Source: a virus. From it: a stretch of 64,000 nucleotides of DNA. Both the position numbers and the translations under genes were made by a program. Positions within the stretch are counted from its first letter, which is position 1. Each line of letters begins with the position of its first letter. Shown one piece after another: positions 11,823 through 47,739 of the stretch. The stretch is taken from positions 64,001 to 128,000 of the IMG/VR virus record IMGVR_UViG_3300036790_000396; one strand, given 5' to 3'. Below the pieces are notes generated by a model. That model was not told the DNA's origin. It did not search any database and was given only the letters and a program-made list of their open reading frames with translations.

Positions 11823-12374
11823 TTACCGTGAGACCGTGGGAACGGGAATGTCGGGCGATATCTCCCGGCCGCCGCCGTCACCCCAGCGGCACCACGGGCA
11901 CCAGGGCTGCAGGCGCTTGTGGATCTCGGTGATCACGACGGAAGAGAAAGAGCAGGCGAACATGACCGCGAGGCCGATGCTGTCGGCCCGGTGATCTTTC
12001 ACGAGAAAGAGGAACACGAGCCATGCGGCGGTTACCGGGACCGGGAAAAAGCGCCAGCGGGAATGAGAGAACCGGAGCGCCCACCGCCGCCGGGAAGCTT
12101 TCTCCTGGGCGTTAACCGGAAGCTTTCTCAGGCAGCGCTCGCACAGCCGGCGCGAGTGCGCGAAGACATCAGCGAACATGGATGCCAGGAACGCGTAGAG
12201 CACGACGTCGCCGGGGATGTAGAAAGGGCTCGCGGAACTGAGGGGAAGGACCGCCTGCACGACGACGACGGCAAATCCCGCTGCCATGAAGCCCGGGCAG
12301 TAATGGCCGCCCCACATCAGGAGCCGGTCCAGCCAGGGGGGAAGCTCGCGGCCTCCCGGTGCCAGCACGGGCAT
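11823..12374 (-). CDS. Membrane protein with Zn-binding motifs
   Basis: Several TM helices; LCERC and H..LQPWCPWC. Confidence 0.65.
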   Translation of the reverse strand: MPVLAPGGRELPPWLDRLLMWGGHYCPGFMAAGFAVVVVQAVLPLSSASPFYIPGDVVLYAFLASMFADVFAHSRRLCERCLRKLPVNAQEKASRRRWALRFSHSRWRFFPVPVTAAWLVFLFLVKDHRADSIGLAVMFACSFSSVVITEIHKRLQPWCPWCRWGDGGGREISPDIPVPTVSR

Positions 12375-12646
12375 CAGCGGTTTCCTTTCCTCAGTCTCGC
12401 GATGATCTCCCGGCCCTCATCCGTGAGGCGGTCCGTGAAGACCAGGATTCCCCGGCGCTCGGTCAGGCCACCCCTTTCCAGGCGCTGCAGCAGCGTCATG
12501 GCTGCCATCGGCCCGATGACGGCATCTCCCCTGTCGTGCTTCATCGAGCGCACGAGAACGGTTTCTTCCTCGCCCTCGCTGCGGGCGACGGCGCGGAGCG
12601 CCTGGAGCATCCTGGCCGTGATGACGGTCCCGTTGCGGCTTCTCAC
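12374..12646 (-). CDS. Winged-helix-like hypothetical protein
   Basis: LQRLERGGL...LTDEGR; GTGA overlap. Confidence 0.5.
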   Translation of the reverse strand: MRSRNGTVITARMLQALRAVARSEGEEETVLVRSMKHDRGDAVIGPMAAMTLLQRLERGGLTERRGILVFTDRLTDEGREIIARLRKGNR

Positions 12647-12870
12647 AGCGCTACCCGCACGATCCGCGTCTTCACCCAGTACCAGCCGTCGAAGTTCCAC
12701 TCGACCTGGCCGCCGGCGCAGTGGTACCGCTCGTGCGCCTGCGCCTTCAGCTGCACCTGGCGGATCGTCTCGTCCGGTCGCGTGTCGCCCGACCGCAGCA
12801 GGTGCTCGCGCAGCTCCCCGCGCGTGAGGCGCACCAGGTGATCCTCCGGCACGCTGATGGTGCTTCCCAT
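12643..12870 (-). CDS. Hypothetical protein
   Basis: AAGGAG RBS. Confidence 0.5.
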   Translation of the reverse strand: MGSTISVPEDHLVRLTRGELREHLLRSGDTRPDETIRQVQLKAQAHERYHCAGGQVEWNFDGWYWVKTRIVRVAL

Positions 12871-13065
12871 TACTTCTCCTTCAGGATGCGGTCGCTCAGC
12901 CGGCTGAACACCATCATGGCGAGGGTGCCGCCCGCAGCGACAAGAGCGAGGACGGCGAGGATGCGCGCGCTTCCTTCCCTTTTACTGTACCAATGTTTAT
13001 TGATAAAAGCTAGTCATTGCCGAAGCCGCCCCGGAAGGACAGAAGACCACCGTGAGGGAGAACGC

Positions 13066-14574
13066 ATGGACGAGCAGCGCGGCGCCCTGCTCCGGGCTAT
13101 CACCGCGGCGCGCACCGGGGGCGATCAGGCCGCAGCCGTCGCTGCCCTCGACCGGCATGACCGGATGCAGCGCCAGGCGGCAGCCGGAGACCGGGAGCTT
13201 GACCTTTCCGCGACCGCTGTCAGGCAGGCGCTGGCCCCGGTCGCGGTGCACGAGCACCACACCGCCGCCACCGACTGGCTCGGCGAGATCCCCGAGCCGT
13301 CCCCGGACTTCCGGACGGCGATGATCGCCCAGGCCGGCTCCTGGTACCGCAGTGTCCCCGCCGAGGTCCGCGCCGACGGCGAGGAGTTCGCCGAGCAGGC
13401 GCGGCTGCGCGCCTACACCGCCGCCTCCTCCTACGGCGACGCCGCGCTCCCGGCCCGGCGCGAGTTCCTGCAGGCGGTCGGCTACCTGTCCCGCGGCGCC
13501 GCATCGGGCCTCCCGCAGGTCGACCAGGTCATCGACCCGAACAACCAGCCGTCCCCCACGCCGTACCCGACCGAGGTCTTCGACAACTTCGCGCCGCAGC
13601 AGAACGATTTCAACGCGCCGGTGGAGTCGCCGGACCACCAGAGCCAGGTTTCCAGCGAGCAGGCCCCCATGCTGCAGCAGGTCCAGCAGCAGGACGGGTC
13701 CGGATCCGGGTTCGGCAGCGGCCCCGAGCTGCCCGACCAGCACGACACGGCGATGGACACCCAGTACGGCTACGCCGAGGTGCCGCTGGGCCCTCCCGGC
13801 GTCATCCCCACCGTCCCCGCGGCCACCGATCAGGGCGGCGCGATGCCGCAGGGCCAGAGCACTCCCAACCCCGTCGCCGGGTCGGACCAGGTCGCCGATG
13901 CGGAGCCTCTCGATGACGAGGACGTGCAGCCGGGAGCCCGGAGCGCGTCGCTGACGCCCCCGGACTGGCAGGGGTACCGCTGGCGCACCGCCATGGCGCA
14001 GCCGCCGCTGGACGCCCCCTGGCACGCGCGCTGCGGCTCCCTGCACTGGCCCACGGACCCGTGCGGGAGCCAGGGGCACACCGCCGCCGTCTCCTGGGCG
14101 CAGACCGCCGAGACGTTCGCCCGGACCGCCTCCCTCCAGGCAGGGGGCTTCGCGGAGGGCACGCAGGTGATGGCCGCCGCCCGGATGAGCGTCCCCGCCG
14201 TCGCCTCGCACCACAACCAGCTCCTGGGCGCCTTCACCGCCGCCGCCCGCACCGAGGACGAGGTCCACTGGCTGCACGGCTACCTCGCCGCCGTCCGCCC
14301 CCTCCTCGCCTCGGCCGGCAAGTGCTCCGGCTGCGGCGGCTCCTGCCGCCAGGACCAGGACAAGTGCGAGGCCTGCCGGCAGAAGGAGAAGACCGCTTCC
14401 CTCCGCGCGCTCGCCAACCAGTACATCAAGCAGCGCGGGGACAAATGGGTCATCCTGCAGAAGGGCACCGGCAAGGTCCTCTCCCACCATGACTCGCAGG
14501 AGAAGGCGGAGGCCAGCTTCCGTGCCATGATGCAGTCCAAGCACGGCTCCCGGGGGCGCCTGGATTTTCAGTAG
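13066..14574 (+). CDS. Putative virion head protein (modular); probably extended by a -1 frameshift to 15101
   Basis: GAGGGAG RBS; acidic P/Q-rich segments; RTAS/KTAS junctions; ends at slippery G GAT TTT. Confidence 0.65.
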   Translation: MDEQRGALLRAITAARTGGDQAAAVAALDRHDRMQRQAAAGDRELDLSATAVRQALAPVAVHEHHTAATDWLGEIPEPSPDFRTAMIAQAGSWYRSVPAEVRADGEEFAEQARLRAYTAASSYGDAALPARREFLQAVGYLSRGAASGLPQVDQVIDPNNQPSPTPYPTEVFDNFAPQQNDFNAPVESPDHQSQVSSEQAPMLQQVQQQDGSGSGFGSGPELPDQHDTAMDTQYGYAEVPLGPPGVIPTVPAATDQGGAMPQGQSTPNPVAGSDQVADAEPLDDEDVQPGARSASLTPPDWQGYRWRTAMAQPPLDAPWHARCGSLHWPTDPCGSQGHTAAVSWAQTAETFARTASLQAGGFAEGTQVMAAARMSVPAVASHHNQLLGAFTAAARTEDEVHWLHGYLAAVRPLLASAGKCSGCGGSCRQDQDKCEACRQKEKTASLRALANQYIKQRGDKWVILQKGTGKVLSHHDSQEKAEASFRAMMQSKHGSRGRLDFQ

Positions 14575-14603
14575 CCGCCGGATGGCAGCCCGCTGCCGCC
14601 GGC
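14562..14603 (+). other. Putative programmed -1 frameshift signal (G_GAT_TTT plus downstream hairpin)
   Basis: Heptamer at 14562-14568, 8-nt spacer, GC hairpin at 14577-14603. The -1 frame is coding-like and open to 15101 with no start codon before 14745. Confidence 0.65.
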
Positions 14604-15101
14604 CCGCTCAGCCGCGAGGCCGTCTCCCGGGAGACCGAGCATCACGTCACCCAGTACGACCCCGAACGTCTCCGCGGCCACCTGGAGAGCGAGCACTCCA
14701 GCTACGGACTGCTGGGGCGCACGGTCCCCAGCGATCCCGCAGGGATGGAGCAGGCGCACCGCAGCGCGCACGAGCGCGAGGACCCGTTCTTCGGCGCGTG
14801 GCACGGGAACACCGAGCCCGCTGACCCGCAGGACTTCACGGCGATGCACGCCGAGCACCCCGACGAGGAAGACCACTACCGCGCCTACGAGACCGGCGAG
14901 CACCAGCCCCACGGCCTCGGCGCCCACCTGCTGAACGATCACGGCTACACGCCGCAGGCGGTCGAGGAGTCCTGGAAGGGCTACGACCCGGACGAGCCCC
15001 GCGACCCGTCGCTGGGCTTCCACCGGCTGCGCGAGATGCACCGGCAGGCGCACGACTACGAGCACGACGTCTACGGCGTGAACCCCTGGAGGAGCCAGTG
15101 A
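14565..15101 (+). CDS. His-rich repeat extension (-1 frame of the 13066 gene)
   Basis: Two L..HL...H ... H...H motifs, the first upstream of the first Met; stop overlaps the next gene's start (GTGA). Confidence 0.55.
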   Translation, partial: FSVAAGWQPAAAGPLSREAVSRETEHHVTQYDPERLRGHLESEHSSYGLLGRTVPSDPAGMEQAHRSAHEREDPFFGAWHGNTEPADPQDFTAMHAEHPDEEDHYRAYETGEHQPHGLGAHLLNDHGYTPQAVEESWKGYDPDEPRDPSLGFHRLREMHRQAHDYEHDVYGVNPWRSQ

Positions 15102-17026
15102 CCGAGCCGGAGCGGTCGTTCCTGCGGCACATGAGGCAGGCGGCCAGCGAGCTGCCCCAGGTGCAGCAGGTCACCGACCCCAACAACGTCCCGACGCCGC
15201 AGGCGGACATGCTGCCGCCGGATGTCATGTTCCCCCTCGACCCGGCGTTCCAGGTCCGGTGGGAGACCGGGCCGCAGGGTGCCCGGCCCGTCCGGGCCCA
15301 GGCCGCTGCGGGCTCCAGTCCCTACCGCCCCGAGGGCGCCCCTCCCGGCTACGGCCCCGACCCGCGCCTCGTCGACACCGTTCCCGCGCTCACCCTCCCC
15401 ACCGGCGAGCCGGTCGGCGACCAGGACGGCGACCTGTGGGGCGGCCGGACCCCTCCCGGCGCCCCCGCCGTCTCCAACGCCGGCAAGGGCGCCTGGGGTG
15501 ACGGCCCGATCGCCAGCCGCCGTGTGCGCCGTACCGCGCGTACCGAGCACGCGGAATGCGGCGGCTCCGTGGAGAACGGGCGCTGCCGGAGCTGCGGGGA
15601 GGAAGCCGCCCCGTGGATGTTCGGGCAGCGCGGCAAGGCTTATACCGTGGTGCGGGGCATTGAGGCCCAGGACATCGATCCCGGTCTCAGTTCCGAGGAT
15701 GACGAGTTCCTGGGCGGCCACGGCATCCAGGCATCCCGCCGTGTGCGCCGCACTGCGGACTTCATGTCCCGGCCGCTGCAGTCGACCGACGACCTGAACG
15801 CGCCTTACAACTCGCCGCAGACGACGCCGGACCCGTTCTCCTCCAACGCGAGCCCGCAGTCCGGTGACTACCAGGCCGGGTTCTCCGAGGGCCAGCAGGA
15901 CCGCGGCCGGGGCGACGCCCCTACCTTCAGCGACAACTCCAGCCACGTCTCGCCCTACGTGCAGGGCTACGCCGCGGGCTACGGCGCCGCGCCGCCGTCC
16001 GTGCCGCAGGACGTTCCCGGTTCCGCAGGCGGTGATTCCGGCCAGGGAGTGAACGTGCAGGAGGCCCAGCGGGAATGGCAGACCGCGCAGGCCGGCCTGC
16101 GCCGCCGCGCCCATGACTTCACCGAGTCCGGGCGGGAGAACGCCGCGCATTCCCTCGGCCCGGACGACAAGCTGCCCGTCAACAGCCTGCAGGACCTGAA
16201 GAACGCGCACCGCCGTGCCCACCAGGTGGAAGGCGAGCCCGAGTCCGCCGTGGACTCCTACCTGAGCCGTCTCGACGACCAGTACGGCTACCACCCCGGG
16301 AAGGAGTCGTCGCTGCGCGTTTCCGCCGCCCTCGTCGCGCAGTCCGAGACCCGCAGCGGGGACTTCCGCAAGGGCTACCGGTTCGCGTCCCGGTGGAAGC
16401 CGGGGCAGAAGCTTGCCTCCCGCGGCCCCGCCGCGTTCGAGGCGGGGATGTATGCCGCCATGTGCGACGCTCCGGGGCCGCAGCGCAGGGCGTGGATCGG
16501 CGCCCACCAGCGCCTGTCCCGCCGGCAGCCGGATGCCGTGTGGCGCCTGGAGCGCACCCTGTCGTTCACCCGGCAGGCCGTGCGCGACAGCCAGCTGCTG
16601 AAGATGGCCCGTGACGGCTACTTCCCGCGGCTGGCCGGCGTCTCCACCGACCTGATCACGGACGGCCCCGGCACGAGTCCCGACCCGATGGGCCAGACGC
16701 CGCTGAACGGGCCCGGCACTCCGCCTCCGTCCGGCGGCGGCGAGAACCCGGCCCGTCCCGGCGGAATCCCCCCGTACCAGGGAGGGCAGCCCGTCGTCGC
16801 CGACGACGGGCTGGGGCCCGCCCAGGAGCCGCCCCACGAGAACGGCCCCTTCACGCAGACGTTCTCCGGCCGCCAGCCCGGCAACATCGACCTCGCGCCG
16901 GCGGCTCCCAACAACGCGGACGGCCCCGGCTACGAGAATCCCGGAGCCTATCCCTCGGACATGCGCCGGGCGCAGGCATTCCGGGCGCGGGTCCAGGCAT
17001 CGCTGCGGGCGCGCCAGCCGGCCTGA
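15098..17026 (+). CDS. Putative virion head protein (modular)
   Basis: RQAAS/RRTA junctions; P/G-rich; shares the LPQV.QV.DPNN motif with the 13066 gene. Confidence 0.65.
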   Translation: MTEPERSFLRHMRQAASELPQVQQVTDPNNVPTPQADMLPPDVMFPLDPAFQVRWETGPQGARPVRAQAAAGSSPYRPEGAPPGYGPDPRLVDTVPALTLPTGEPVGDQDGDLWGGRTPPGAPAVSNAGKGAWGDGPIASRRVRRTARTEHAECGGSVENGRCRSCGEEAAPWMFGQRGKAYTVVRGIEAQDIDPGLSSEDDEFLGGHGIQASRRVRRTADFMSRPLQSTDDLNAPYNSPQTTPDPFSSNASPQSGDYQAGFSEGQQDRGRGDAPTFSDNSSHVSPYVQGYAAGYGAAPPSVPQDVPGSAGGDSGQGVNVQEAQREWQTAQAGLRRRAHDFTESGRENAAHSLGPDDKLPVNSLQDLKNAHRRAHQVEGEPESAVDSYLSRLDDQYGYHPGKESSLRVSAALVAQSETRSGDFRKGYRFASRWKPGQKLASRGPAAFEAGMYAAMCDAPGPQRRAWIGAHQRLSRRQPDAVWRLERTLSFTRQAVRDSQLLKMARDGYFPRLAGVSTDLITDGPGTSPDPMGQTPLNGPGTPPPSGGGENPARPGGIPPYQGGQPVVADDGLGPAQEPPHENGPFTQTFSGRQPGNIDLAPAAPNNADGPGYENPGAYPSDMRRAQAFRARVQASLRARQPA

Positions 17027-17029
17027 CAA

Positions 17030-17065
17030 GGGAAAAGCCCCGCCGTGAAGCGGGGCTTTTCCTTT
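17030..17065. terminator. Bidirectional intrinsic terminator
   Basis: GGAAAAGCCCCGC-loop-GCGGGGCTTTTCC between convergent genes. Confidence 0.8.
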
Positions 17066-17137
17066 CGCAAGACGGGGATCTCGCATTACTGATGGGGTCT
17101 TACTGCCCTGCCAGCGTAGGACGCGGCGGGGGAATGG

Positions 17138-17668
17138 TCAAGAACGGGGCTCCCCGTCCTCACTGTGGTCCGCTATCCACTGGGCGTGCTCCGCCACGCG
17201 GGTGGCGGTCTCCAGGTCGGCCTCGCGCTGCTCCAGCTCCGCCTCCTGCCGCTTCAGGCGCGTCTCGTGCTCGCGCAGCGCGATGGCCGCCCGCGCCTGC
17301 TTCTCGTCGGCGCGGTCCCGCTGCCCCCTGACGATCAGGGCGAGGAACAGGACGAAGACGAGCCACAGCGGCCAGACGGCGCCCGTGAGCACGCTGATGC
17401 CGACCGCCTTCTCCGCGGTGTGCCCGCCGTAGCAGGAGTCCTGCTTGCCTGCCGGGACGTGGCCGTCCTGGTCGAGCCCCAGCCTTTCTATGTGCCGGGC
17501 CCATTTCTGGTCCCGGCCGCTGAATTTCCACGCGTCCTCGCGGTCGCTGCGTGCGTAATGGACCTCCCCGCACAGCGGCACCCGGCTGGGGCGCGCGGTG
17601 CCGTAGGATCTCCGTGCGATCACGGTGAACCCGGCGAGGTAGACGGCAAGGATGATGATCGCGGTCAC
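17138..17668 (-). CDS. Membrane protein with coiled coil
   Basis: AGGAGG RBS; two TM segments. Confidence 0.6.
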   Translation of the reverse strand: MTAIIILAVYLAGFTVIARRSYGTARPSRVPLCGEVHYARSDREDAWKFSGRDQKWARHIERLGLDQDGHVPAGKQDSCYGGHTAEKAVGISVLTGAVWPLWLVFVLFLALIVRGQRDRADEKQARAAIALREHETRLKRQEAELEQREADLETATRVAEHAQWIADHSEDGEPRS

Positions 17669-29200: not shown

Positions 29201-29465
29201 GCACATGTACGTCAACCACGCCCGCTCCGGCCCCGCAGCCGGCATGCTGGCCGTGAACCTGGGCCCTGACTCCGGCCGCGTCCCGGACCTCATGCACCGC
29301 GAGCTGGGCTGCCGTACCGTCATGAATGCGATGATGAGCCAGTCGGCGAACGCGGCGAGGACGGAGCCGGGGGAAAGGCAGCCTAGGGTGCGCCATGTCG
29401 CCGAGGGCGTCATCCCGAACGAGCTGCGGCAGCGTGAGGCATCGGCACGACGGAGGATCGCGTGA
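26268..29465 (+). CDS. Zn-ribbon head-associated protein with intein and C-terminal repeated modules
   Basis: GGGAGG RBS; spliced product reads HCPFCGSG...CAFCG; three LETGH modules separated by REAS. Confidence 0.75.
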   Translation: MPQQRFVRIAHDPGDPQLCSHCFGPETRYLTPDGVKTLGETVGTAQRVMTADSLQSHDGRWADAEIRSFGVQQLHRITLKRNKVTKVIRATAGHRWLVRRPDRIVTTDRLLPGHRLATARLPRQELAMDREGICHGFFFGDGSLRRTENADYGKVILWGQKRELASYFEEIAGRPGVEKHTPNGVPGLAFQAGMKGYAKSLPLLTMPPEYLYGWLAGYFAADGWSGGTNASLSSAVRAHLEHVRDICTLLGIGTYGITSKTRTGFGKESEIFEVGFSQSDLNTDFFLRSDHREARRPPPQERFGWTVVSVEPDAEEEVFCAIVPENERFALEDNILTMNCPFCGSGQITGRSDGGIDCAFCGQSFIVRVQPAFPGMPQAPGMGAPTDAGPEGIPVGLPPGAGPEGLPPGADGGMPPGGDEEGGGFPPGGDEDEEAPPGADDEDEDDGAPPFAKKSSRRLGAHEHPDDDLRRHLAEEHGHGWIEYPGVSEISRIHDADHRNRGAAAHRGDIAPPLQSLPEPAARHWPAHRRERFDDPRLGDSYGDRFGAEDVADQYRRETHGQPSPDSDYGRFAPAPPERRHLSVRRYRTISGDVLPEDAYIRHLAVLHSGGSSRVLALLRREAASGGDDGRLPPRSVMTQRQHLQATRDMRDRLAASGFPMDAPSGDEDMRMNPSCRLETGHHISFGVELRGGKHSMFITHPADMGQGRTFLEVGLGRDPSRVADLARRELGCPHVAGEMTEQLRGHGDEPLRQPPSARSVRHEAEGTQPREASLRYRAAFDWDNATEDEADREFQRREDGMQDAVERHGVDSILRPNRVNRIETGHEISFEHHPAEGEGDDYWTVGVNHPADSWTGDAERYPRYYWKGFRGPDDDVVRQAVQHLRSPRTMDVMREQSRRAMSREASLRRRADLDYDEVPEGHAMSKREQISRLREMRGRLEDHGIRMLPSDSGMAPYFDLETGHRILLGLSQQHGDWHMYVNHARSGPAAGMLAVNLGPDSGRVPDLMHRELGCRTVMNAMMSQSANAARTEPGERQPRVRHVAEGVIPNELRQREASARRRIA
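26331..27284 (+). mobile_element. Intein (318 aa) with LAGLIDADG endonuclease
   Basis: Starts CFGPET; block B TAGHRW; GFFFGDG and WLAGYFAADG; ends ILTMN|C. Confidence 0.92.
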
Positions 29466-32400
29466 AGGTCAGGTTCTCGCCGACGGCGGCGCTCCAGCGC
29501 GACCAGGCGGTCGCCCAGGGCATGAGCCGGATGCTCGCCCGCGGCGCGGAAGGCGCCCGCGATGACATGACCCCCGAGGTCGCCGAGGCCCGCATCAACC
29601 GGCGGGCATCGCTGCGCCGGACCGGCAGCTACGGCGGGGGAGGAGGCGGCGGAGCCTCTGGAGGCTTCTCGGACATTCAGTTCGCAACCGGGAGGCCCAG
29701 GGATCCTCTCTTCTACTGGAGGCAGAACAACCTCCCGTACGACTTCAGCCAGAACGAGGAGCTGGCGAAAGTCCGTGCCTTCTGCCGGCTGCTGTACCAG
29801 ACCGACCCGATTGTCGGGTCCTGCATCGACATCTTCACGAAGTTCCCCACGATCGGGATGAACCTGGAGTGCCTCGGGCGTGACACGGGAGTCCTGACGC
29901 GCCAGGGCATGCGTCCTATCGGCGAGCTAGCCGGATCTGCCCAGGAGATCCTGACCGTCGGCGGCAAGTGGGCTACGGCGAAGTTCGAGAATTACGGCAG
30001 CAGGCGCCTTTACAAGATCACCCTGCGCCGTAACCGTCGTGAGAAGACGATTTACGCCACAGAAAATCACCGCTGGTTCCGCTGGAATGCGGACAAGGAA
30101 GCAAGGCGCTACGAGGGATCTTTCAATCCTGCTTCTAAGGTTTCGTGGGAGGATGTTCGAGAAATAAGGCTTAAATACGCTGAAGGCGATATTACTCAGA
30201 AGGACCTGGCTTCAGAGTACGGGATAACTCAGCCGGCGATCGGCCAGATAATCAGGCATGGCACCTGGAAGAATCCTCCCGCTGAGAAAAAGGAGCAGGC
30301 AACTAGAGCCTTTCCGGTGAAGGAAGAGGCAGTCACCGCTGACCTCATGCCGGGAGACCGGCTTGTCAGCGGGTGGTCGAAGAACCTCATCCATTCGACG
30401 TTTCCTTCTCCTTTTGGGATCGCGCATGGCATGACGTACGGAGACGGTTCTCTGGAGACATCCGGAGGCGGCTCCTACATCACGCTGTACGGGGTGAAGG
30501 ATCTCCAGATGCTGCCGTATTTCAACGGCTGCCATGTGACGGATCCTCCCTCTGAAGCTCGCCGGAACGGAAGGCGCGTCAGCGGCCTTCCGTCTTCGTT
30601 CAGGCAGCGCCCGACCTTGGACGAAGGGACTTCCTACCTGTACGGCTGGCTGGCTGGCTACTTTGCGGCAGACGGCACCGTGTCCAGTGGCGGAGAGTGC
30701 TACCTAGATACTGCTTTTGAAGACAATGCCAGGTTCATTCAGCATCTCTGCACAGTCTTGGGAATCAAGACCTATGACTATTACGCGTACACGGTGCCCT
30801 TTGTTCAGACGCCTCAGGGAGCTGTCTACGAAAATCACGAATCATACCGCGTGCCCATCGATTCTGCGTCTCTTACGAAGGATTTCTTCTGCATCAGCGA
30901 GCATCGTGCGCGATGGGAAGGGCGCAAGGAACGTCAGCGACGAGAAGAATGGACTGTCATAGGAGTAGAGCGTACAGACCAGGTCGAAGAGGTTTTCTGC
31001 GCTAAGGTTCCCGAAACGGAATCTTTTGTCATCGAGGGAAATATCCTCACCGGAAACTGCAAGGACAGCCGGCTGGAGGATTTCCACGGCGGCCTGTTCT
31101 TCGACGAGGACCATCTCGACTACGAGGAGTTCCTCGTCGACATCGGCCGCGAGTACTGGACTTCCGGGGAGGCGTGGCCGTTCGCCACGTTCAACGAGGA
31201 TCTCGGCATCTGGGATGACGAGGAGCTGCTCAACCCCGACGACGTCAAGGTCGAGCGCAGCCCGTTCCTGAAGGAGCCCCGCTACTTCATCCGGCTCCCG
31301 TGGACCATCCGGCAGATCCTGCAGACGCGCCAGCCCCAGTACGAGTACTCCCGCCTCGTGCAGGAGTACCCCGAGCTGACCGCCTACACGGCGGAGAACA
31401 CGTTCATGCCCGTGTCGAACGTGCTGCTGCGCCAGCTGAAGTTCCGCGGCGACACGTTCAACGTCCGCGGCCTCCCGCTGCTGACCCGCGCCATGCGCGC
31501 GATGCTGCAGAAGGAGATGCTCAACACCGCGCTGGACTCGATCGCGGACCGGCTCTACACGCCGCTGATCCTGTGCAAGCTCGGCGCCTCCGCCACCGAC
31601 CTCGGGACCAGCCAGCCGTGGATCCCCACCGAGGACGACATGGAGAACTTCGAGCTGGCCCTCGACGCCGCCCTCGCCGGGGACTTCCGTGCCCTGATCT
31701 ACAACTTCGCCGTCGACATGGCGCCCGTCCTGGGCCGCGAGCAGATGCCCGACCTCACCCCTGACTTCGAGCGGATCGAGGACACGGTGCTGCAGGTCTT
31801 CGGGCTGTCCCGCACGCTGCTCACCGGTGCCGGGGCCGGGCAGACCTACGCCGCCGACGCGCTGAACAAGGATCTCGTCACCCAGCTGATGAGCCGGTAC
31901 CAGAAGTTCCTTGCCCGCCACTTCCGGCAGCGCGCCCAGGTCGTCGCCGAGGCCCAGGAGCACTACGACTACCGCGAGCACGGCGGCAAGAGGTACGTCA
32001 TCATGGAGGAAGTCCTCGAAACCGACGAGGAGACCGGCGAGAAGCGCCTCGTCGAGCAGCCCAAGCTGCTGGTGCCCGAGCTGAAGTTCAAGGTGCTGAA
32101 CCTGTCGGACGAGGACGCCCGGCGCCAGTTCATCGAGGCGCTGCGCTCCGGCGGCGTCCCCGTCTCCCAGCGCACCCGCACCCGCGGCCTCGACGTCGAC
32201 CTGCAGGAGGAAGAGGAAGTCTCCTCCGACGAGGCCGTCCGCCAGGCGGTCAAGGAGCAGGAAACCCGCAGGCAGACGTTCATCGCGCTGCGAGACGGCG
32301 GCCTGCCCATCCCGGAGGATCTCGCGACGGACTTCAGCCCGCACGCCCAGGTCCAGGGGATGCCCGCGATGCCCGGCGCACCGGGGATGCCGCTCCCGCG

Positions 32401-32842
32401 CCTGGGCAGCGAGCCGCAGCCGCTGATGGCCCTCGCCCCCGTCCCGCAGGACCAGGAGGAGGAGCAGGCCGCGCAGGAGGACGAGATGAACGCGCCGCCC
32501 GAGGACTCCGGGGGAGAGTTCCCGCCCGCAGGGGAGGAGAGCGCGGTGCCGCCCGAGTCGGGCGAGCAGCGCAAGGGGATGCCCAGCCAGGCTGCCCTGT
32601 TCCGGCGTACCGCCTCGTCCCGCGACCGCGCGCTGGCCCGCCGCCGGGAGCGCAGCGAGCGGCTGGCCGCGGAGGCCGCCGTCCCCGAGGAGCATGCCGG
32701 GGGCCCGGACAGCACCTGGCACTCGTACGGCACCCCCGAGCCGTACCGGACGCCCGCGGTGGTGGGATCGCGGTGGTCGCGCCCGGCCGGGTCGGGCGAG
32801 AAGCCGGAAGCCGATGAGATGGAGTACTTGACACCAGGCTGA
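29462..32842 (+). CDS. Portal protein (cluster C-like) with intein
   Basis: LLYQTDPIVGSCIDIFTKFP...GLPLL.RA...ADRLYTPL recalled as cluster C-type portal; position in the head module. Confidence 0.8.
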   Translation: MKVRFSPTAALQRDQAVAQGMSRMLARGAEGARDDMTPEVAEARINRRASLRRTGSYGGGGGGGASGGFSDIQFATGRPRDPLFYWRQNNLPYDFSQNEELAKVRAFCRLLYQTDPIVGSCIDIFTKFPTIGMNLECLGRDTGVLTRQGMRPIGELAGSAQEILTVGGKWATAKFENYGSRRLYKITLRRNRREKTIYATENHRWFRWNADKEARRYEGSFNPASKVSWEDVREIRLKYAEGDITQKDLASEYGITQPAIGQIIRHGTWKNPPAEKKEQATRAFPVKEEAVTADLMPGDRLVSGWSKNLIHSTFPSPFGIAHGMTYGDGSLETSGGGSYITLYGVKDLQMLPYFNGCHVTDPPSEARRNGRRVSGLPSSFRQRPTLDEGTSYLYGWLAGYFAADGTVSSGGECYLDTAFEDNARFIQHLCTVLGIKTYDYYAYTVPFVQTPQGAVYENHESYRVPIDSASLTKDFFCISEHRARWEGRKERQRREEWTVIGVERTDQVEEVFCAKVPETESFVIEGNILTGNCKDSRLEDFHGGLFFDEDHLDYEEFLVDIGREYWTSGEAWPFATFNEDLGIWDDEELLNPDDVKVERSPFLKEPRYFIRLPWTIRQILQTRQPQYEYSRLVQEYPELTAYTAENTFMPVSNVLLRQLKFRGDTFNVRGLPLLTRAMRAMLQKEMLNTALDSIADRLYTPLILCKLGASATDLGTSQPWIPTEDDMENFELALDAALAGDFRALIYNFAVDMAPVLGREQMPDLTPDFERIEDTVLQVFGLSRTLLTGAGAGQTYAADALNKDLVTQLMSRYQKFLARHFRQRAQVVAEAQEHYDYREHGGKRYVIMEEVLETDEETGEKRLVEQPKLLVPELKFKVLNLSDEDARRQFIEALRSGGVPVSQRTRTRGLDVDLQEEEEVSSDEAVRQAVKEQETRRQTFIALRDGGLPIPEDLATDFSPHAQVQGMPAMPGAPGMPLPRLGSEPQPLMALAPVPQDQEEEQAAQEDEMNAPPEDSGGEFPPAGEESAVPPESGEQRKGMPSQAALFRRTASSRDRALARRRERSERLAAEAAVPEEHAGGPDSTWHSYGTPEPYRTPAVVGSRWSRPAGSGEKPEADEMEYLTPG
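29870..31057 (+). mobile_element. Intein (396 aa) with LAGLIDADG endonuclease and an inserted HTH
   Basis: Starts CLGRDT; ATENHRW; GMTYGDG and WLAGYFAADG; ends ILTGN|C; lower GC than the flanks. Confidence 0.92.
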
Positions 32843-33231: not shown

Positions 33232-34422
33232 GTGGAACGACGCATCACCCGGCACGCCGCCAGGCTGGCCGCGCAGGACACCGGACCGGACGCTGACTTC
33301 CGGCAGGGCCAGCGCGTGCGCACCGCTGACGGCATCGCCGGCACCGTGGCCGCTGTCGAGCCCGGCTTCTCGCCCGGCTCCGAGACCTACTCCGTGACCC
33401 TCGACGGCGGCATGGGCGGGGGCTCTTACAGTCCCGGCCAGCTCCGCGCGGTGGCCGCGATCGACGAGGTGACCGCCGATATCGACGGCAAGCTCGCCTC
33501 CGACTCCTACCCCGAGATGGGCACCATCCTGCACGACCGCCCCGACCCCGGCCGCGAGATCACCGTCATCGGCATGCGCAAGCAGGCCGCTTCCCAGTTT
33601 CACCAGCAGATGGACCCGTTCCTGTACCGCGGCCTCAATGTCGAGCTGCCGCCGGACGTGCACGCGAAGGTTCACGACTCGTCTCGCCCTGAGCATGAGC
33701 GCGGATTCCATCTCGCCCGCTACCTCCTCACGCACCCGCACCCGTTCGGGGGAGAAGCCGGAGAAGGGCTGGGCCGGGACTGGTACTACGACTCGCACAA
33801 GGCGTCCGAGGCGGCCGAGCAGAGAATGCCCTGGTCCCGGAACCTCAGCAGCGGGCGCGACCCGAAGCGCACTCCCGTCGTCGTCAAGGCGTACAACCCC
33901 GAACTGGAGCATCTCCTCAAGCCGGAGGAAATGGCTTCCTACACGCGGTCCCGGAACTGGTCTGATGTCATGATGCCCGAGCACGGCAAAACCGAGGTGC
34001 GCCGCGCCGGATCACCGGTTGAGATCCATTCCCTGTGGTGGAACCACCCGGAGCACCTCGACCCGGGATCCCTGCATTACGGGGAAGAGGGCGAGCTGCA
34101 GTTCCCGGAGCCGATCCGGGTGAAGGCCGGCCTGTCGCGCAGCGCCGCCGACCAGGGCGAGATGGAGCGCCACCTGACGCTGCCCGCCGGCAACGGCGGC
34201 CACGGCATGCCCCCGGAGATAATGCGCGCCTTCCGCAGCGGCGGCCGGGGCCTGGAAGACGTGCACTCGCAGATCCACGCGAAGCACGACTTCGGCGAGC
34301 ACGAACTCAGCCACCATCACGGCGGTCCCTCCGCCTGGGAGTACGGCGCCGACGCCGCGGGCACCCACGCGTTCACCGGCTCGCGCCGCTGGATTCCCGC
34401 CGACCCCCGCTGGGAGGCATGA
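33232..34422 (+). CDS. Modular head protein: SH3-like N-terminus, ART-like module, His-rich module
   Basis: GAGGGAGG RBS; GQRVRT.DG..G.V...Y.VTLDGGMGGG.Y; LYRGLNVELP module. Confidence 0.7.
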   Translation: MERRITRHAARLAAQDTGPDADFRQGQRVRTADGIAGTVAAVEPGFSPGSETYSVTLDGGMGGGSYSPGQLRAVAAIDEVTADIDGKLASDSYPEMGTILHDRPDPGREITVIGMRKQAASQFHQQMDPFLYRGLNVELPPDVHAKVHDSSRPEHERGFHLARYLLTHPHPFGGEAGEGLGRDWYYDSHKASEAAEQRMPWSRNLSSGRDPKRTPVVVKAYNPELEHLLKPEEMASYTRSRNWSDVMMPEHGKTEVRRAGSPVEIHSLWWNHPEHLDPGSLHYGEEGELQFPEPIRVKAGLSRSAADQGEMERHLTLPAGNGGHGMPPEIMRAFRSGGRGLEDVHSQIHAKHDFGEHELSHHHGGPSAWEYGADAAGTHAFTGSRRWIPADPRWEA

Positions 34423-37400
34423 TGGCCTGGTACGACGAGCCCGGCCATGCTCCTGTCGGCGACGAGCTGCACCGCGGCATCGGGATCTACCTCCCGCAGG
34501 ATCTCCACGACTACGTCCACGACGAGTCGGTCCCGCCGGACAGGCGCGCTCACGCGCTGCTGGACCGCATCGGGCACACTCCCGGCTGGGCCTGGTCCGA
34601 CGACCCGGTGTCCGCCAAGCGCTACGCCGAGCTGAACGAGCCCCCCGTATGGCATGAGGGCGAGTCCGGCGAGGTTACCCCGGTGATGCTGCACGCCCGC
34701 ACCCCGGGGCGCGAGCACTGGCTGTCCGGCCCGCATGCCCTGCGCGCCCGCGAGCTGGCCGGCGGCTACGACGACGAGCGCCCGCGCCCTGATCCCGCGC
34801 AGCGGGAAGTGCAGCTGGAGGCGGGTGCCCCGCTCGACGTCACCGGCATCTCCTGGGCGCGCCCGGACCACGTCGGCCCGTGGGGCATCCATGCGGGCGA
34901 GCAGTCCCCCGCGCAGGACCCCGGCTGGACGGCGCACCGGTTCCCGCGCCGCATCCAGCTGACTGCCGCTGTTCTCCCCGCGAAGACGGCTGCCGCCAGC
35001 CGGGACGACTTGCAGGACAAGAGCAAGGTCTACCTGAGGTTCGGGCACTGGCCGGAGAACGAGCGCTCTTTCAGCGGCGCGGGCGGCTATCACGAGGACG
35101 GCGTGAGCGCCTACGAGCTGGACGGGGACGGTGACCCGAAGGACCCGGATCCCGATTATGAGCGCGGTCACGTCCACGAGGGATGCGATCCTGACTGCGA
35201 CATGGACCTGGACGACCCGGACAACGACACGGGCGAGGAGATGGAAGGCCGCGTCCGCCGCGCCCAGCGCAACCGGGAGAACGGCAGTGACGTCCGGGGC
35301 GAGACCGGGCACCTCGTGAGGGGAGACGTCGCCGGCCTCGGCTACGACGCTGAGCCGCTGCTGACGAACGTGCGCCGCGTCGGCGACTGGATCGACCACC
35401 GGCACCTGTTCGTCCCGGGTGCCCGGCCGCACCGTCTTGCCCGCGATCCCTCCAGCGGGGACTACGAGCCCCCGGCGGAGCAGCCGCCGCTGCGTCACGA
35501 GGGAGCCGCTTTCCCTCATTCCCAGCTGAAGCTGTTTCACATGCAGCCCGATCCGGGCCTGAATGTCCCGGAGTCCGGCCGCCACAACCCTGAGGATCCC
35601 GGTGCCCACTCCCGCTGGCGCGAGGAGACCGACCCGGACTACGAGGCACCGCGCTGCCAGAACTGCGGCGGCAACCTGCATGACCCGGAAGGCCACGCTG
35701 AAGACCACCAGAACTGGCTCGGGGAACAGGACTGGCATACCGACTGGAACGAGGAGCAGCCAGGTCCCGTCCTGCACCGCGGCCTCGTCATGGAACTGCC
35801 GCCGGAACTGCACAACCGCGTCCACGACGAGTCCGTCCCCGCCGCCGACCGTGCCCGCGCACTGGTCCGCCATGTCATCCGCGACCAGGGGGACGGAAGC
35901 CCGCACGGGGGCCTGGGCAATTTCTGGTCCGATGATCCCGACGTCTCCAAGAGCTACGCGGAAGGCCGCGGCGGCTCCCGGTCCGAGACGCCGGTCATGC
36001 TGCACGTGAAGACGCCGCCGATGGAGCACGTCGAGACCGACCCGGATCAGCTGGAGCACTGGGGCGTATTCAGTTACCACCTGAACGGCAACCGCGAGGT
36101 CCCCCTCCAGCATCAGGCCCCGCTGGAGATCACCGGCGTCTCCTGGGCGCACCCGGGCCATGCCGTGACCAGGGGCCCCTCTCCCCATGATGCTGCCGCC
36201 TGGCATGAGCCGGGCCCGCATCACTTCGGGCAGGATCCCGCCTGGACGCATCACGAGTTCGGCGACGGCATACGCGCGCACGCAGCCAGCGAGAAGACGT
36301 GGACGGGTGATCCTGCCCCTGACTGGGAACGCGCTTTCAGGGAGAAGGACCCGCGCCTGACGGAGATGCACCGCGGCATCCGGGTGTATCCCTCCGACGA
36401 TGTCTACCGGCACGTCACCGATACGAGCATCCCCGGCGCTGACCGGGCACATGTCCTGCTGCGGCATATCGGCGAGCAGATGCGCGAGCAGCCCGGGCAC
36501 GGAATCGGCATTTCCTGGACCGATAATCCCGATCACGCGATGCGCGTGGCGCGCGACGGCGGCTGGGCCGAGGACGCAGCGCGTTCCTGGCGCTGGCCGC
36601 ACCCGGATGACCGGGGCGACCACCTGGGCGTCGTGCTCAATGCGAAGTGGCCCGAGAAAGGGCACATCGAGACTGACCAGCGGGTACTGAACAGGCATCT
36701 TGTCGTTCCCTATGACTCGCCGGCCACTGAAGGAGAGATTCCTCTCCGCAAGGGCGCTCCCGCCACGATCACGGGGCTCACATGGTCCCAGCCCCTTCCC
36801 GGATGGGGACACCAGTATGCTGTCCACTCCGGTACCTTCGGCCGTCCTGTCCGCTACAACGGCACGGACTTCGAGTTTCCCGGCCAGGACCGCATCGCCG
36901 CCTATCAGGGCGAGACTGACCCGCGCGAGAGCGAGTTCAACGGCGACCCCCAGGTCGCCGGCGTCTACTGGACCGCCCCGGCCCAGCAGTCCGCGGTGCA
37001 GGACGGGCAGCTGGACGATCCGCAGGTGCTGGCTCCCGTGCTGCCGGTCCCTCCGATGCTGCCGATGACCCCGGTCGCCACGCGGATCTACGACCAGAAG
37101 ATCGACGATCACGGGGATGCCCCCGACCACGGGACGCGGCCCCGCGCCTCCGACCCCGAGGGCTACGACCGTGACTCCACCGAGGGCAACGGCGACCCGA
37201 AGTGGTCGGACGCGAGCGAGCAGACCAAGCGCGACCAGAACGGCGCCGCGATTGCCATGTACCCCGAGGGCGTCTCCGCCGGCGGGGGCCCGGGGATCTC
37301 GGTGGGCCCGTTCACCGCGGCCCGGCTGCGGTACTCCGCCTGCGGTACCGCCCCCGAGGGCGGCGAGGTGACTGCGGCCCGTGTCCCGTGGACCGATCAT

Positions 37401-40400
37401 GAGCGCACTGTTCTCAAGGGCTGGCAGGAAGTGCCGGCCGGGCAAGAGGGAGACTTCGTGAGCAGCAGGGACTTCACCGGGCGCCATCCCGAGCCGCCGC
37501 CGGACAACCTCGCGATGCTGCCTCCCTCCGAGGCCGCGAGGAACGAGGAGACCTGGCCCGAGCTGCCCGGCGCCGACCTGGTTTCCTCGCCCCAGGAGCG
37601 CAGCAAGCCGTATCACCCCGAGACGACCCTGGAGAATTTCGACCACCGCGAGTGGATCAACGACATCGACCCGAACGCTCACAAGTCCGGGGACAAGGGC
37701 TGGTTCGAGCACACCCTCAGCTCCCTCCGCGCCCAGGCCGCAGAGGAGGGCGAAGAGGAAGACGAGCCCGCGCCCCGGTCCCTGCGCGAGTTCCGCGTCA
37801 GCCCCCGCCAGGGTCATCCCGGCCAGGGCGGAACGGTGCCGAAGAACCCGCAGTCGGCCATCACCAACGCCGTGCCGCACGACTGGGCAGCGGCCTACGG
37901 GCCGCTGACTCGCGCCAAGATGAGCGCCCTGGAGCCCACTCCCCGCGCCTTCCTCCTGGCCGTCGCCGCGGCGGCCTCTCCTGCCGCCGGCCCGGATGAC
38001 GACGATCCCGGTGAGGACGAGGAAGACGCCGAGGAGATGCCGGGCGGCTTCGATGACCGCGCCCTGATGCCGCAGGTGCTGCAGGGGCAGGCCCCTCCCG
38101 GCGCGTTCGCGCCGCCGCCGGTGGCGGCCGAGGGCCTCGATCCCTACAGCCAGGCCGGGATGAGCAGCCAGGACCGGCTGATGCGCCAGTACGAGCGTGA
38201 TCACCCCGGCGCGGGCGAGCTGAAGCCGTTCAGCCGCGACGACGAGACGGAGCGGAAGGAAGACCGCGAGAGCGTGCAGGCGCATGCGTCGCTGCGCGCC
38301 CTCGCGTCGCTGCCGGCGTTCCGGTTCGAGGTCACCGCCTCCTGGAACGACGTGCAGGCCAAGGCGCAGCGGCTGCGCACCACCGGGTCGGTGAGGATCA
38401 CCCACGCCACGAAGGGCATGATCATCGGCGAGGTCCGCGGCGACCACGCTACCTACGAGTCCGGCATCCAGTCCTATCCGGGGCGCCCGCAGTCCGTGAT
38501 GGCATGGGAGTGCGGCTGCCCCTGGGCGTCCTTCCACCAGAATCAGCCGCGGGGCAGCTCCCGCTTCGCGGCCCGGATGTGCAGTCATGCCCTGGCGATC
38601 CGGTACGAGGCGCAGTCCCGCGGCATGTTCGGCCGCACGGTCGCTCCCGACACCCGCGCCCCGTCGTGGCAGCCGCACGACGTCGTCGTCAAGTCCTGGC
38701 CGCCGTACGAGGGCGATCCGCACGCCGGCCGCTGGCGCGAGCAGCTCATGGCCCCGGCCGCCAGCCGTACCGCCGCGCGGGAGGGGGGGCTGCCGTTCGT
38801 CCCGTCCTACGGGCAGGACGATCTCCGCGCGCACCTGATGCACCACCACGGGCTGCCCGCGTCGTTGCAGAACGCCCACATGAGCGACGCGGAGACAGAG
38901 CGGTGGCACCGGGGGAAGCACCGGAACCGGACGGACGAGACTCACCAGCACGAGCGGCCGGAGGGCATCGGCGCCGAGCACGAGTACCCCGCGATGGCCG
39001 AGCCGTCCGAGGACTACGGCGCGTGGAACGGCGACCGGGAGGTTCACCCGCGGTACTTCCCCGGGATGCTCGCTGACGAGGACCGGTCGCGGGCGTTCGG
39101 GCCGCTGCCGCCCTCCTACAGCTCGCTGCAGAGGACGGCTGCCGAGGACGAGGACTCCCAGCAGGACGTCCCGTTCGGCGAGGGCGTCACGCCCGGCCAC
39201 CCGTTCCGCCGCGGTGACATCTCCAACGGCATGTACTCCCCGCACACCCAGCTCGGCAGTCCCTGGTACCTTCCCGCCGGCACGCAGGAGCGGTACGAGG
39301 AGGGAAGCAGCGACGAGCACGCCGGGCAGCTCAGCGCGCTCCGCGAGCAGCGCGAGGAAATGCGGGAGGACGCCGAGGAAGAGGAGCGCGAGCGCCGCGA
39401 GCACCAGGAGAACGGCGGCGGCTTCCGGCCGCGCCCGTCACTGCGCATGTCCCGCCGCGTGACCGCCGACCAGGCCAATGCCCCCTGGGGTGCCCAGAAC
39501 GTCGTGCAGCACCTCCCGCAGCAGCCCTACGGTGCCACGTCGCCGGCCGAGAAGGACCAGGATCCCGGCTCCTACGGCCCGCTGTCCGGCCCCGACCCGG
39601 AGAACTGGGGCGAGATCCAGGACGGGTCGGCCGTCCAGATGCCCCTGAGCAGCGAGGCCGTCCTGCATTACATCGCCGCCGGCGCCGCGGTGATGGACGC
39701 TCCCGTGCGCACGCGCCAGGTCAGCAGCCCGAAGCTCAGTGATGACGGCGGGGGTCCTCCCCCGCTGGAGATGGGCAGCGGCGGCGGAGGAGACGGCGAG
39801 GGCCGGTACCGGTACCTGATCACCCGGCACAGCCCCAACGGCTTCAGCCTCATCAACGACCTCCCGGCGGGTCATCAGGACCAGCATGTCTCCTACCACC
39901 ACACGGCGGACGAGGCGCTGCACATGCTCGGCCACAAGCAGCGGGCCGGGTCGGCTTCCCCGCACGAGGTGTACTACCTGCCGAAGATGGACGACACTGC
40001 GGGATGGAAGCAGAGCGACCGCGGGATGTACTGGGAAGACCAGGGGCGCAAGCCGCCGCCGCGCTACGACTGGGGAAAGAAATACCAGGAGCACCTGAAC
40101 CGCTGGTTCAATCCCCGCTCTCCTTCGTACAGCCCGCACCCCGATTACGTGCCGGCCTCGGCTGACATGAGCGACGCGGAGCTGCAGGACCACTGGAAGC
40201 AGCAGCACTCCCAGACGCCCATGCCGAAGCTGCGCAGCCGCGAGCAGCATGATCACCGCCATGACCGGCTGACCGACGACGTGCTGCCCGAGTCATTCGA
40301 CTCGTTCAAGAACCAGTCGAATGACTTCAGGGACCAGAAGAAAGGCGTCGAGCTGTTCGGCTGCCCGGCGAACCACCTGGAGGCCAGGGACTCCGCCGGG

Positions 40401-46821: not shown

Positions 46822-47739
46822 ATGTCGCTGACCAAGTACGCCAGCCTGGAGCTGCTGGAGGCGTGGCGCGTGCCCGCGAAGGCGACGCCGCGCGGGCTGT
46901 CCAAGGCGGCGCACCGCGTCGACTTCGAGTACACGCCGCGGCCCGGCTACCTCGCGTACTGTTGCCATGTGAGAGACAGCAACAAGGGAAAAAGCTGCAC
47001 GGGGCCCGGGTGCCTTCGGGAAGCAAAATGCAAGGGTCTTTGCCTTGCTCATTACACTCAGCGGAGATCTGGAAAAGATCTTTCCGTGATCCGCGTTCGT
47101 GCAAAAAATGCTACGGACTCCTGCGTATTTCCCGGATGCGATCGTCCCCATTTTGCTAAAGAATACTGCAAATCCCACTATCATCAGCGGCAGCGTCACG
47201 GAGAAGTAACAGTATTTCGTCAGTTCTTGGAAATTTGTTCTTTTCCTGGATGCGATCGTGGTCACTCTGCGCATGGATACTGCGACGGGCATGCGATTCA
47301 GCTGCGGAAGGGAAAGGAGCTGTCTCCCCTCCGGGCTCGCCAGAAGGGCCGTGTATGCACAGTAGACGGCTGCAGCGATCCTTACCTTGCCCGCGGCTTC
47401 TGCGCAGTTCATTATAACCAGTGGCACTGGGCTGAATCGGAAGAGGGACGCGAGGCTCGAAAACGTGCTTTCCACAAGCGACGTGCTATTAAGGCATCTG
47501 CCGAGACAAGACTGATCTCTTCTCGCGAATGGAAGCGCCTGGTCAATCGTTACCAGGGGAAATGTGCTTATTGCAGGAAGGCCCCGTGGAATCATCGTGA
47601 GCACATAATTCCCCTAAGCCGCGGTGGAAGGGAATCGATCGGGAACCTGCTTCCGTGCTGCGAGAGATGCAACACGTCTAAGCACAATAAGCTTCTCTCT
47701 GAGTGGAGGTACGGTGCTTCGCAAGTACGCATCGCTTGA
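46822..47739 (+). CDS. HNH homing endonuclease fused to the original N-terminal 44 codons of the prohead protease
   Basis: Four C..PGC....A.G.C..H repeats; CAYC...EHIIPLSRGG...NL...C..CN..K; N-terminus paralogous to 47714-47833. Confidence 0.88.
   Translation: MSLTKYASLELLEAWRVPAKATPRGLSKAAHRVDFEYTPRPGYLAYCCHVRDSNKGKSCTGPGCLREAKCKGLCLAHYTQRRSGKDLSVIRVRAKNATDSCVFPGCDRPHFAKEYCKSHYHQRQRHGEVTVFRQFLEICSFPGCDRGHSAHGYCDGHAIQLRKGKELSPLRARQKGRVCTVDGCSDPYLARGFCAVHYNQWHWAESEEGREARKRAFHKRRAIKASAETRLISSREWKRLVNRYQGKCAYCRKAPWNHREHIIPLSRGGRESIGNLLPCCERCNTSKHNKLLSEWRYGASQVRIA

Follow-up and report, generated by a model that had tools for sequence, protein, structure and literature searches.

A likely programmed −1 ribosomal frameshift at the 3′ end of a modular gene in a large soil actinophage

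How is a long reading frame translated when it is coding well ahead of its first start codon? This question is raised by a locus in the 64,000-nucleotide (nt) stretch of viral DNA analysed here, hereafter the window (positions 64,001 to 128,000 of the IMG/VR record IMGVR_UViG_3300036790_000396). The window is part of a complete virus record of 146,944 base pairs (bp) with direct terminal repeats and ~70% G+C, and its source is a large (~147-kb) soil actinophage. In the window, gene 1 (13066-14574), which encodes a protein of 502 amino acids (aa), is followed in the −1 frame by a His-rich open reading frame (ORF) that lacks a start codon near its beginning and ends by overlapping the next gene, gene 3. 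A sequence-only reading had proposed that gene 1 and the His-rich ORF are joined by a programmed −1 ribosomal frameshift at a G_GAT_TTT heptamer. Its statements about the sequence, namely the end of gene 1, the heptamer, the 8-nt spacer, the hairpin at 14577-14603, the start-less −1 frame and the overlap with a GTG, all hold on re-reading. We consider it likely that the 3′ end of gene 1 carries such a shift, yielding products of 502 and 678 aa. Coordinates are those of the window, and the features of this locus lie on the plus strand.

Gene 1 starts at ATG 13066 behind the Shine-Dalgarno sequence GAGGGAG (duplex −8.9 kcal/mol) and in frame 0 encodes the short product (MDEQ...RLDFQ*). Its 3′ end, at 14560-14574, reads CTG GAT TTT CAG TAG. 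The slippery heptamer G_GAT_TTT (14562-14568) is in frame-0 phase and is the sole in-frame xxT_TTT of gene 1, and the frame-0 stop TAG (14572-14574) lies one sense codon past it. In a −1 step from the A-site UUU at 14566-14568 to the UUU at 14565-14567, re-pairing of the Phe-tRNA is perfect, and that of the P-site GAU on GGA is poor. The codon TTT accounts for 13 of the 208 Phe codons in the phage genes of the window. Upstream of the heptamer by ~5-6 nt in the DNA alignment is a G-rich, Shine-Dalgarno-like run, GGGGG (14552-14556), a possible upstream stimulator; most relatives carry an equivalent GGGAG/GGGGAG run.

The heptamer is separated by a spacer of 8 nt, CAGTAGCC, from a putative stimulatory hairpin at 14577-14603 (GCCGG-A-TGGCAG-CCCG-CTGCCG-CCGGC). 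The hairpin has 11 bp, a bulged A and a 4-nt loop, CCCG, with a folding energy of −18.9 kcal/mol. It ranks in the top 0.1% among all 27-nt windows and in the top 0.7% among random positions under the same scoring. Both strands of the 64 kb together contain 473 tetramers of the types TTTT, TTTC and AAAG; only one of them has a hairpin of ≤ −17 kcal/mol at a distance of 5-9 nt, and this one is the heptamer site. The rare codon GCT provides the T that pairs with the A of CAG in the hairpin. Only the local hairpin and its placement count, since the fold of the whole 72-nt stretch is ordinary for its G+C (z = −0.54). Four features by which programmed −1 frameshifting is recognized are found here: an in-phase slippery motif, a structure ~5-9 nt downstream, a start-less coding ORF in the −1 frame and conservation of the site at the nucleotide level.

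Other signals were also considered at this site. A terminator scan flagged CCGGGGGCGCCTGG+ATTTT, which was rejected as it has a 5-bp stem and four U residues and lies within or at the end of ORFs. A frameshift at the G5 run (14552-14556) was ruled out, the run being 20 nt from the hairpin and not conserved, and the T4 run is too short for transcriptional slippage. An Rfam scan returned nothing relevant. Nineteen nt past the main hairpin, inside the start-less coding stretch, there is a perfect palindrome at 14622-14635, GTCTCCCGGGAGAC, with a 5-bp stem and a CCGG loop.

In the −1 frame an ORF spans 14493-15101, and its translation includes ..FSVAAGWQPAAAGPLSREAVSRETEHH..ERLRGHLESEH.. The part that would belong to the long product (14568-15101) consists of 177 codons (SVAAGW...NPWRSQ) followed by TGA (15099-15101), and encodes a His-rich, all-helical module. 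G+C content at third codon positions (GC3) is a sharp indicator of frame in this genome, and the GC3 signal switches from frame 0 to −1 at ~14575-14600, about 150 nt ahead of the first start codon. At a control junction, 34419, the switch coincides exactly with a GGGAGG sequence and an ATGA overlap; this junction, considered as a second start-less one, was dismissed as an ordinary ATGA overlap with its GGGAGG. The first ATG, GTG or TTG of the −1 frame is the ATG at 14745-14747, which lies inside the conserved module and lacks a ribosome-binding site. Its duplex with the anti-Shine-Dalgarno sequence is −0.3 kcal/mol, compared with a random median of −3.1 and with −8.9 and −9.3 for genes 1 and 3, respectively. 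Initiation at ATG 14745 would cut the module, because both homology and the helices of a structural model extend upstream of it, and this ATG is probably not the real start. The −1 codon that overlaps the stop of gene 1 is GTA, which is not a start codon. Three other routes to this ORF or out of it were rejected. Read-through of the TAG is ruled out by the non-coding composition of frame 0 past it, and ATG 14582 is in the wrong frame and gives a junk translation. A second shift, from the His-rich ORF into gene 3, has neither a slippery site nor a structure, and gene 3 has its own ribosome-binding site.

Relatives of the His-rich module were sought among 1.8 billion representative proteins, and only two, P0005 and P0006, were found. 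P0005 (1267 aa) is a homologue of gene 3 in which residues 150-316 correspond to the module, in frame (overall E 1.8e-23). The 61 start-less codons alone match P0005 at the collinear place (E 2e-7), and the alignment covers 55 residues upstream of the window's ATG (PERLRGHLESEHSSYGLLGR versus PAGLHRHMSGEHGQFGLLGR). An AlphaFold2 model of the module is all-helical (predicted template modelling score, pTM, 0.66; mean predicted local distance difference test, pLDDT, 68). Its helices 11-24 and 29-40 precede Met57, with block pLDDT of 58-80 there, and in structure alignments of the model residues 5-72 behave as one sub-domain. No significant fold match was obtained in the PDB (Foldseek), in BFVD or in a wide VIA search, where the best Z of 5.8 is at the noise level for helical models. 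An internal repeat in the module is weakly indicated (E 0.005). Ten His residues are invariant across the three known members, for which a helical fold of two sub-domains is predicted; a metal-binding role would be a guess. Searches for further copies added none. A blastn search with 12000-17100 against phage and plasmid records gave no match, and scans of IMG/VR and of JGI metagenomes returned no relative of the module. The same scans failed to return the contig of P0005, which is therefore not in the collections scanned. A protein search for longer fused forms of the module found none, a weak negative since that search also missed P0005.

We then compared the junction with that in related phages, a comparison that supplies the strongest support for the shift. 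Two IMG/VR scans gave 21 distinct related loci, which fall into four types by their junction. In type A (L028, L029, L030, L033, L041 and L042) genes 1 and 3 are fused into a single ORF of 1111-1359 codons. In type B (the window, L034, which equals L008, and L039, which equals L005) frame 0 stops 1-5 codons past the site and the −1 frame runs on for 177, 588 and 834 codons, respectively, without a nearby canonical start. The seven loci of type C have an ordinary stop/start junction, and the six distant loci of type D are fused and lack the motif. The junction is CGC CTG GAT TTT (RLDF) in five of eight related contigs and CCA AAT TTT (PNF) in the other three, so that the heptamer is G_GAT_TTT or, in three relatives, the canonical A_AAT_TTT. 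The ATTTT is invariant in nine loci, the window included, and the flanks have diverged to 64% column identity. An in-frame xxT_TTT occurs exactly once in each type A or B ORF (500-1360 codons), always at the junction, and never in type C. In the ORFs of the relatives the codons concerned are uncommon: TTT makes up 7 of 215 Phe codons, GAT 76 of 581 Asp codons and AAT 22 of 226 Asn codons.

The six fused loci add a second pattern. In these type A loci the −1 frame stops 1, 4, 1, 0, 9 and 4 codons past the Phe, against a median background distance of 43-93 codons for off-frame stops in the same ORFs (per-locus background fractions 0.011-0.126). An immediate −1 stop, as expected of a shift that truncates, is therefore found in the six fused relatives (0-9 codons) and not in the window (177 codons). 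The stop element itself is the same, and only its phase differs: L030 reads TTT CCT GAG, with TGA in −1, and L039 reads TTT CCC TGA, with TGA in frame 0. Across the predicted joint the fused L042 reads GRRLDFSRAAEAAL (RLDFSRAA) and the fused L029 reads RLDFLLAA..AAADG; the counterpart in the window is GRLDF in frame 0, then SVAAGWQPAAAG in −1. Eight of the nine loci have small G+C hairpins (percentiles 0.007-0.15) that begin 5-8 nt past the heptamer. These hairpins include a perfect 9-bp stem with a spacer of 8 in L034, and GCCGCUGAGGCGGC, shared by L029 and L042; the hairpins of the nine loci are not alignable to each other. When the N-terminal domain is used to build a tree, the three loci of type B fall at three places among type A, and the starred branches force at least two changes, although mosaic recombination could blur the placement of type B. 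At L034:6057-6129 and L039:5985-6057, A_AAT_TTT stands at the end of gene 1 and the −1 frame leads straight into gene 3 (588 and 834 codons). In L039 a conserved GAPFAGY module precedes any canonical start.

The sequence of the junction was also compared at the level of assemblies. A Logan assembly of run X1 contains a 37.9-kb contig, at a depth of ~204, that is identical over 12500-17200 without gaps. An artefact of the assembler is excluded because this independent contig is identical, but one at the level of the reads is not, since X1 may be the source sample. The 502-aa and 118-aa proteins (the latter called from ATG 14745) are recorded exactly in both the JGI and Logan assemblies. Run X2, a soil metagenome from a different study, contains a related strain at low depth with scattered base differences. 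This strain has AGG for CGC (15000/15002) and TCA for TCG (15011), and read in the −1 frame the three changes are synonymous; the heptamer is not visibly covered. A search for near-identical phages through the neighbouring polyvalent gene found only relatives at 47%.

These results agree with the proposal that a −1 shift at G_GAT_TTT fuses the product of gene 1 with that of the start-less His-rich ORF: the rare-codon heptamer is present in eight relatives, an unshifted homologue spans the joint, ATG 14745 has no ribosome-binding site and a second assembly is identical. The sequence-only reading had named conservation of the heptamer in orthologs as a check on its proposal and an indel error or independent initiation at 14745 as grounds for giving it up. 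G_GAT_TTT or A_AAT_TTT was found in all eight related contigs, an assembler indel is unlikely given the comparison at contig level with ~204x coverage, and position 14745 has no Shine-Dalgarno sequence (−0.3 kcal/mol).

The proposed mechanism is as follows. Most ribosomes would read CTG GAT TTT CAG, stop at TAG and release the 502-aa protein. A fraction would pause on the 11-bp hairpin 8 nt downstream, and the Phe-tRNA would slip from UUU 14566-68 to UUU 14565-67; the Asp-tRNA would make a poor match to GGA. Translation in the −1 frame would then continue for 177 further codons to TGA 15099-15101 and give a protein of 678 aa (501 + 177). In this protein the His-rich helical module would follow the gene 1 sequence at the C-terminus, the joint reading ...GRLDF-SVAAGWQ..., and LDFSVAAGWQPAAAGPLSR is the joint peptide of the predicted transframe product. 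The rate of shifting is probably low, in the per cent range. In the fused relatives of type A the same shift would end translation within 0-9 codons and produce a shortened form. A phase difference of 1 nt downstream of the heptamer would reverse the roles of the frames in the window and the two other type B phages, so that the window and its relatives with the site would each make a short and a long form.

Several observations speak against this reading. That ribosomes shift here is something we infer from the sequence. Since GAU re-pairs badly on GGA, a bacterial ribosome would in effect meet a U_UUU tetramer, and such a tetramer alone gives low rates. The second assembly is from the same sample and the comparison was at contig level. 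A His-rich module behind the heptamer is seen in the window only, its homologues P0005 and P0006 being protein records, and P0006 is called as a stand-alone protein of 131 aa that begins inside the module. A notable hairpin is missing from L039, one of the nine loci. L039 and L034 have a CTG overlapping the TGA stop where L009 has a GTG start, and a coupled CTG start could serve in these two phages, although it is unavailable in the window, where the codon is GTA. The conserved DNA could also be a recombination joint between modules.

Four other accounts of the locus were weighed. The junction might be a fixed frameshift mutation or recombination scar, in which loss of 1 nt at the T run or an out-of-phase join disrupted an ancestral fusion of gene 1 with the module, with no recoding and the His-rich module dead or reduced to the 118 aa from ATG 14745. 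Module shuffling is rife at the junction, fused forms are common among the relatives, L042 has a T5 version of the site, the module is rare (three hits in 1.8 billion representatives), and the start-less part, with A or T at the end of 8 of 57 codons, has a slightly lower GC3 than the remainder of the ORF. We nevertheless regard a scar as unlikely. It leaves unexplained the rare xAT TTT kept in all nine loci, even where no repair is needed, the top-0.7% hairpin exactly 8 nt downstream, the immediate closure of the −1 frame in each of the six fused relatives and the recurrence of this break at three positions of the tree. Nor does it explain why frame 0 ends one codon past the site, given that off-frame stops are typically 40-90 codons apart. 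A plain error of assembly or sequencing, by which one T more (or one base less elsewhere) would let gene 1 run straight into the module, has a negligible chance of being correct. Homopolymer runs are the usual place of errors and both assemblies come from the same sample, but the 37.9-kb contig of an independent assembler (depth ~204) shows no indel, JGI and Logan agree on the exact 502-aa and 118-aa proteins, T4 is short for an Illumina-type error, and two other phages from other samples have the same polarity.

Independent translation of the His-rich ORF, from ATG 14745 (118 aa) or from an upstream non-canonical codon and perhaps by re-initiation after the TAG, is quite improbable. The 118-aa protein is called in two assemblies, P0006 is a 131-aa stand-alone call, and the CTG of L039 and L034 overlaps TGA at the place of the GTG start of L009. 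The ATG at 14745, however, has no Shine-Dalgarno sequence (−0.3 kcal/mol), is 170 nt from the stop and lies inside the conserved module, with homology and two predicted helices upstream of it. The −1 codon over the stop, GTA, is two changes from AUG, and the in-frame CTGs at 14682, 14709 and 14712 lack a ribosome-binding site and are downstream of conserved sequence. The window ORF and P0006 are called from different starts, both of them internal to the module. We give very little credence to the view that there is no recoding at all and that the conserved nucleotides are a linker, acting as a joint for homologous recombination and/or encoding a short protein motif (GSRLDF / PPNF), for instance a protease site. 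The motif does mark a border where phages attach different modules, and the flanks differ around a constant 10-14 nt. For a peptide motif by itself, however, the common codons GAC TTC would be expected, and a recombination joint predicts neither −1 stops within 0-9 codons nor a hairpin at 5-8 nt. This view also has no explanation for the start-less coding sequence of the window, L039 and L034. A joint of this kind is in any case compatible with frameshifting and not exclusive of it. None of these alternatives explains jointly the conservation of rare codons, the immediate −1 stops in the fused forms, the spacing of the hairpin and the recurring polarity of the window, and a programmed −1 shift remains our preferred reading.

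How does such a shift compare with known systems? In E. coli dnaX, which encodes gamma and tau, the heptamer A_AAA_AAG is followed by a −1 stop, UGA, after one codon, with a Shine-Dalgarno-like run 10 nt upstream and a hairpin downstream. The six fused relatives resemble it in that a −1 shift would stop within 0-9 codons (shortened product), with a downstream hairpin and an upstream G-rich Shine-Dalgarno-like run. They differ in the heptamer (G_GAU_UUU or A_AAU_UUU) and in the distance of the G-run from the site (~6 nt), and in the window the polarity is opposite, a shift there extending the protein. T7 gene 10A/10B and the capsid and tail proteins of a Listeria phage have C-terminally extended forms made by frameshifting. 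Like these, gene 1 is a gene of the virion region with proposed recoding at its 3′ end and a predicted short major and long minor form. In contrast, it does not appear to encode a capsid protein (58104-59120 encodes the major head protein), the extension is a separate mobile His-rich module, and a virion location of the gene 1 product is putative. Short and long protein forms of phages made by recoding have been reviewed as a general class (PMC5009743).

The sequence-only reading had also held that this is not the frameshift of the tail assembly chaperone (lambda gpG/gpGT), and we agree: the packaging gene lies on one side of the locus and the portal on the other, searches gave no match to tail or chaperone families, and the ORFs do not immediately precede a tape measure gene as those of a tail module do. 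The two systems would share a −1 shift near the end of a gene, a minority C-terminal extension, a heptamer with downstream structure and a position conserved in divergent phages. Unlike the chaperone genes, the window site is not upstream of the tape measure gene, its upstream protein is 502 aa long, disordered and modular, there is no sequence relation, and homologues of the site would truncate instead of extending.

The claim that GGAUUUU is a known viral slippery site is correct, but for plant RNA viruses on eukaryotic ribosomes only (PMC4737148, PMC5009743); in bacteria the precedent is the U_UUU tetramer (PMC4066793). The signal G_GAU_UUU_UGG_UAG of pea enation mosaic virus 2 has been dissected by experiment, and there the stop adds to the efficiency (PMC4737148, PMC5009743). 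The umbravirus/dianthovirus signal (pea enation mosaic virus 2 p33/p94) resembles the window in having the same heptamer, a frame-0 stop one sense codon on (CAG_UAG here) and a hairpin shortly downstream. It operates, however, on eukaryotic ribosomes in plant RNA viruses, yields a polymerase product and involves long-distance RNA contacts, whereas the window belongs to a double-stranded DNA phage with a bacterial host. The parallel is an analogy only, reflecting convergence and no family relation. In E. coli, when a structure lies downstream, only A_AA.G and U_UU.C shift more readily than U_UU.U; rates for the six effective tetramers were 0.26-5.6%, and natural insertion sequence (IS) elements use U_UU.[U,C] (PMC4066793).

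The locus sits between polyvalent proteins behind the packaging gene and the portal (29462-32842), and the major head protein (58104-59120) is 44 kb beyond it. Gene 1 had been described as a head gene. This label is not supported by homology, gene 1 having no family assignment, and only the location of the gene in the long packaging-to-head region favours it; both 'head gene' and 'cargo', the role suggested for the extension, are guesses from position. The gene 1 protein is mostly disordered and modular, its Atlas model is poor (pLDDT 0.50) and its identity to relatives is ~50-64%. Pfam gave no match for gene 1, gene 3 or the His-rich module. A DUF6316-like domain was matched by structure at gene 1 residues ~444-494 (14391-14555), and phrog_3684, of unknown function, matches only the last 45 residues; the small C-terminal domain (..KWVILQKGTGKVLSHHDSQEKAEASFRAM..) comprises both matches. 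At L017:7085-7306 and L022:6958-7101 this domain is an internal module of a different protein of ~650 aa with an acidic tail; the modules are mobile between proteins.

Gene 3 (15098-17026) encodes 642 aa from a GTG with its own GGAGGAG at 15088-15094 (duplex −9.3 kcal/mol), and in relatives is separate from gene 1 or fused to it. Its GTG (15098) overlaps the TGA (15099-15101) of the −1 ORF, and the sequence-only reading had proposed that frameshifting couples the translation of gene 3. With its own strong GGAGGAG, gene 3 does not depend on coupling, and this part of the proposal is not supported. The JGI call of gene 3 (631 aa) begins 11 codons past GTG 15098, and the Logan call has 642 aa from the GTG. 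The longer form (642 aa) is probably right, because of the strong GGAGGAG at GTG 15098 and the Logan call. Elsewhere in the window, the ATG of the giant gene 34419-42116 (~2565 aa) is preceded by GGGAGG and forms an ATGA overlap with the gene before it (34412-34424), and ORF listings with a GTG start at 34035 over-extend the gene by ~380 nt. In the head region, 47624-53017 encodes another polyvalent-type giant, a protein of 1798 aa whose N-terminus matches the head maturation protease family phrog_18299 and which also has a ParB C-terminal-like stretch.

The mechanism proposed here is classical. New are its place, in a modular protein family of large actinophages and not in a tail chaperone, the G_GAU_UUU heptamer in a bacterial setting, and the occurrence of both polarities of one conserved site among homologues. 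To our knowledge, few conserved programmed frameshifts in tailed phages lie outside the tail chaperone genes, and G_GAU_UUU with a near stop has so far been documented only for plant RNA viruses. A broader reading has, in our estimate, about an even chance of being correct. The cassette of G-rich run, G_GAU_UUU or A_AAU_UUU, nearby stop and hairpin would be a conserved recoding switch at the module border of long modular proteins in ~150-kb actinophages. One-base phase changes would have flipped it repeatedly between extension (the window, L034 and L039) and truncation (L028-30, L033, L041 and L042), with the ratios of short and long forms inverted, and the same DNA would double as a joint for the swapping of modules such as the His-rich one.

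If the frameshift is real, gene callers mis-annotate all three type B loci, and what is called in the window is a truncated ORF of 118 aa. The locus would then be a new and comparatively well-supported case in actinophages of high G+C. The use of one site in both directions would be a natural experiment on how the ratio of short to long form is set and re-set in evolution.

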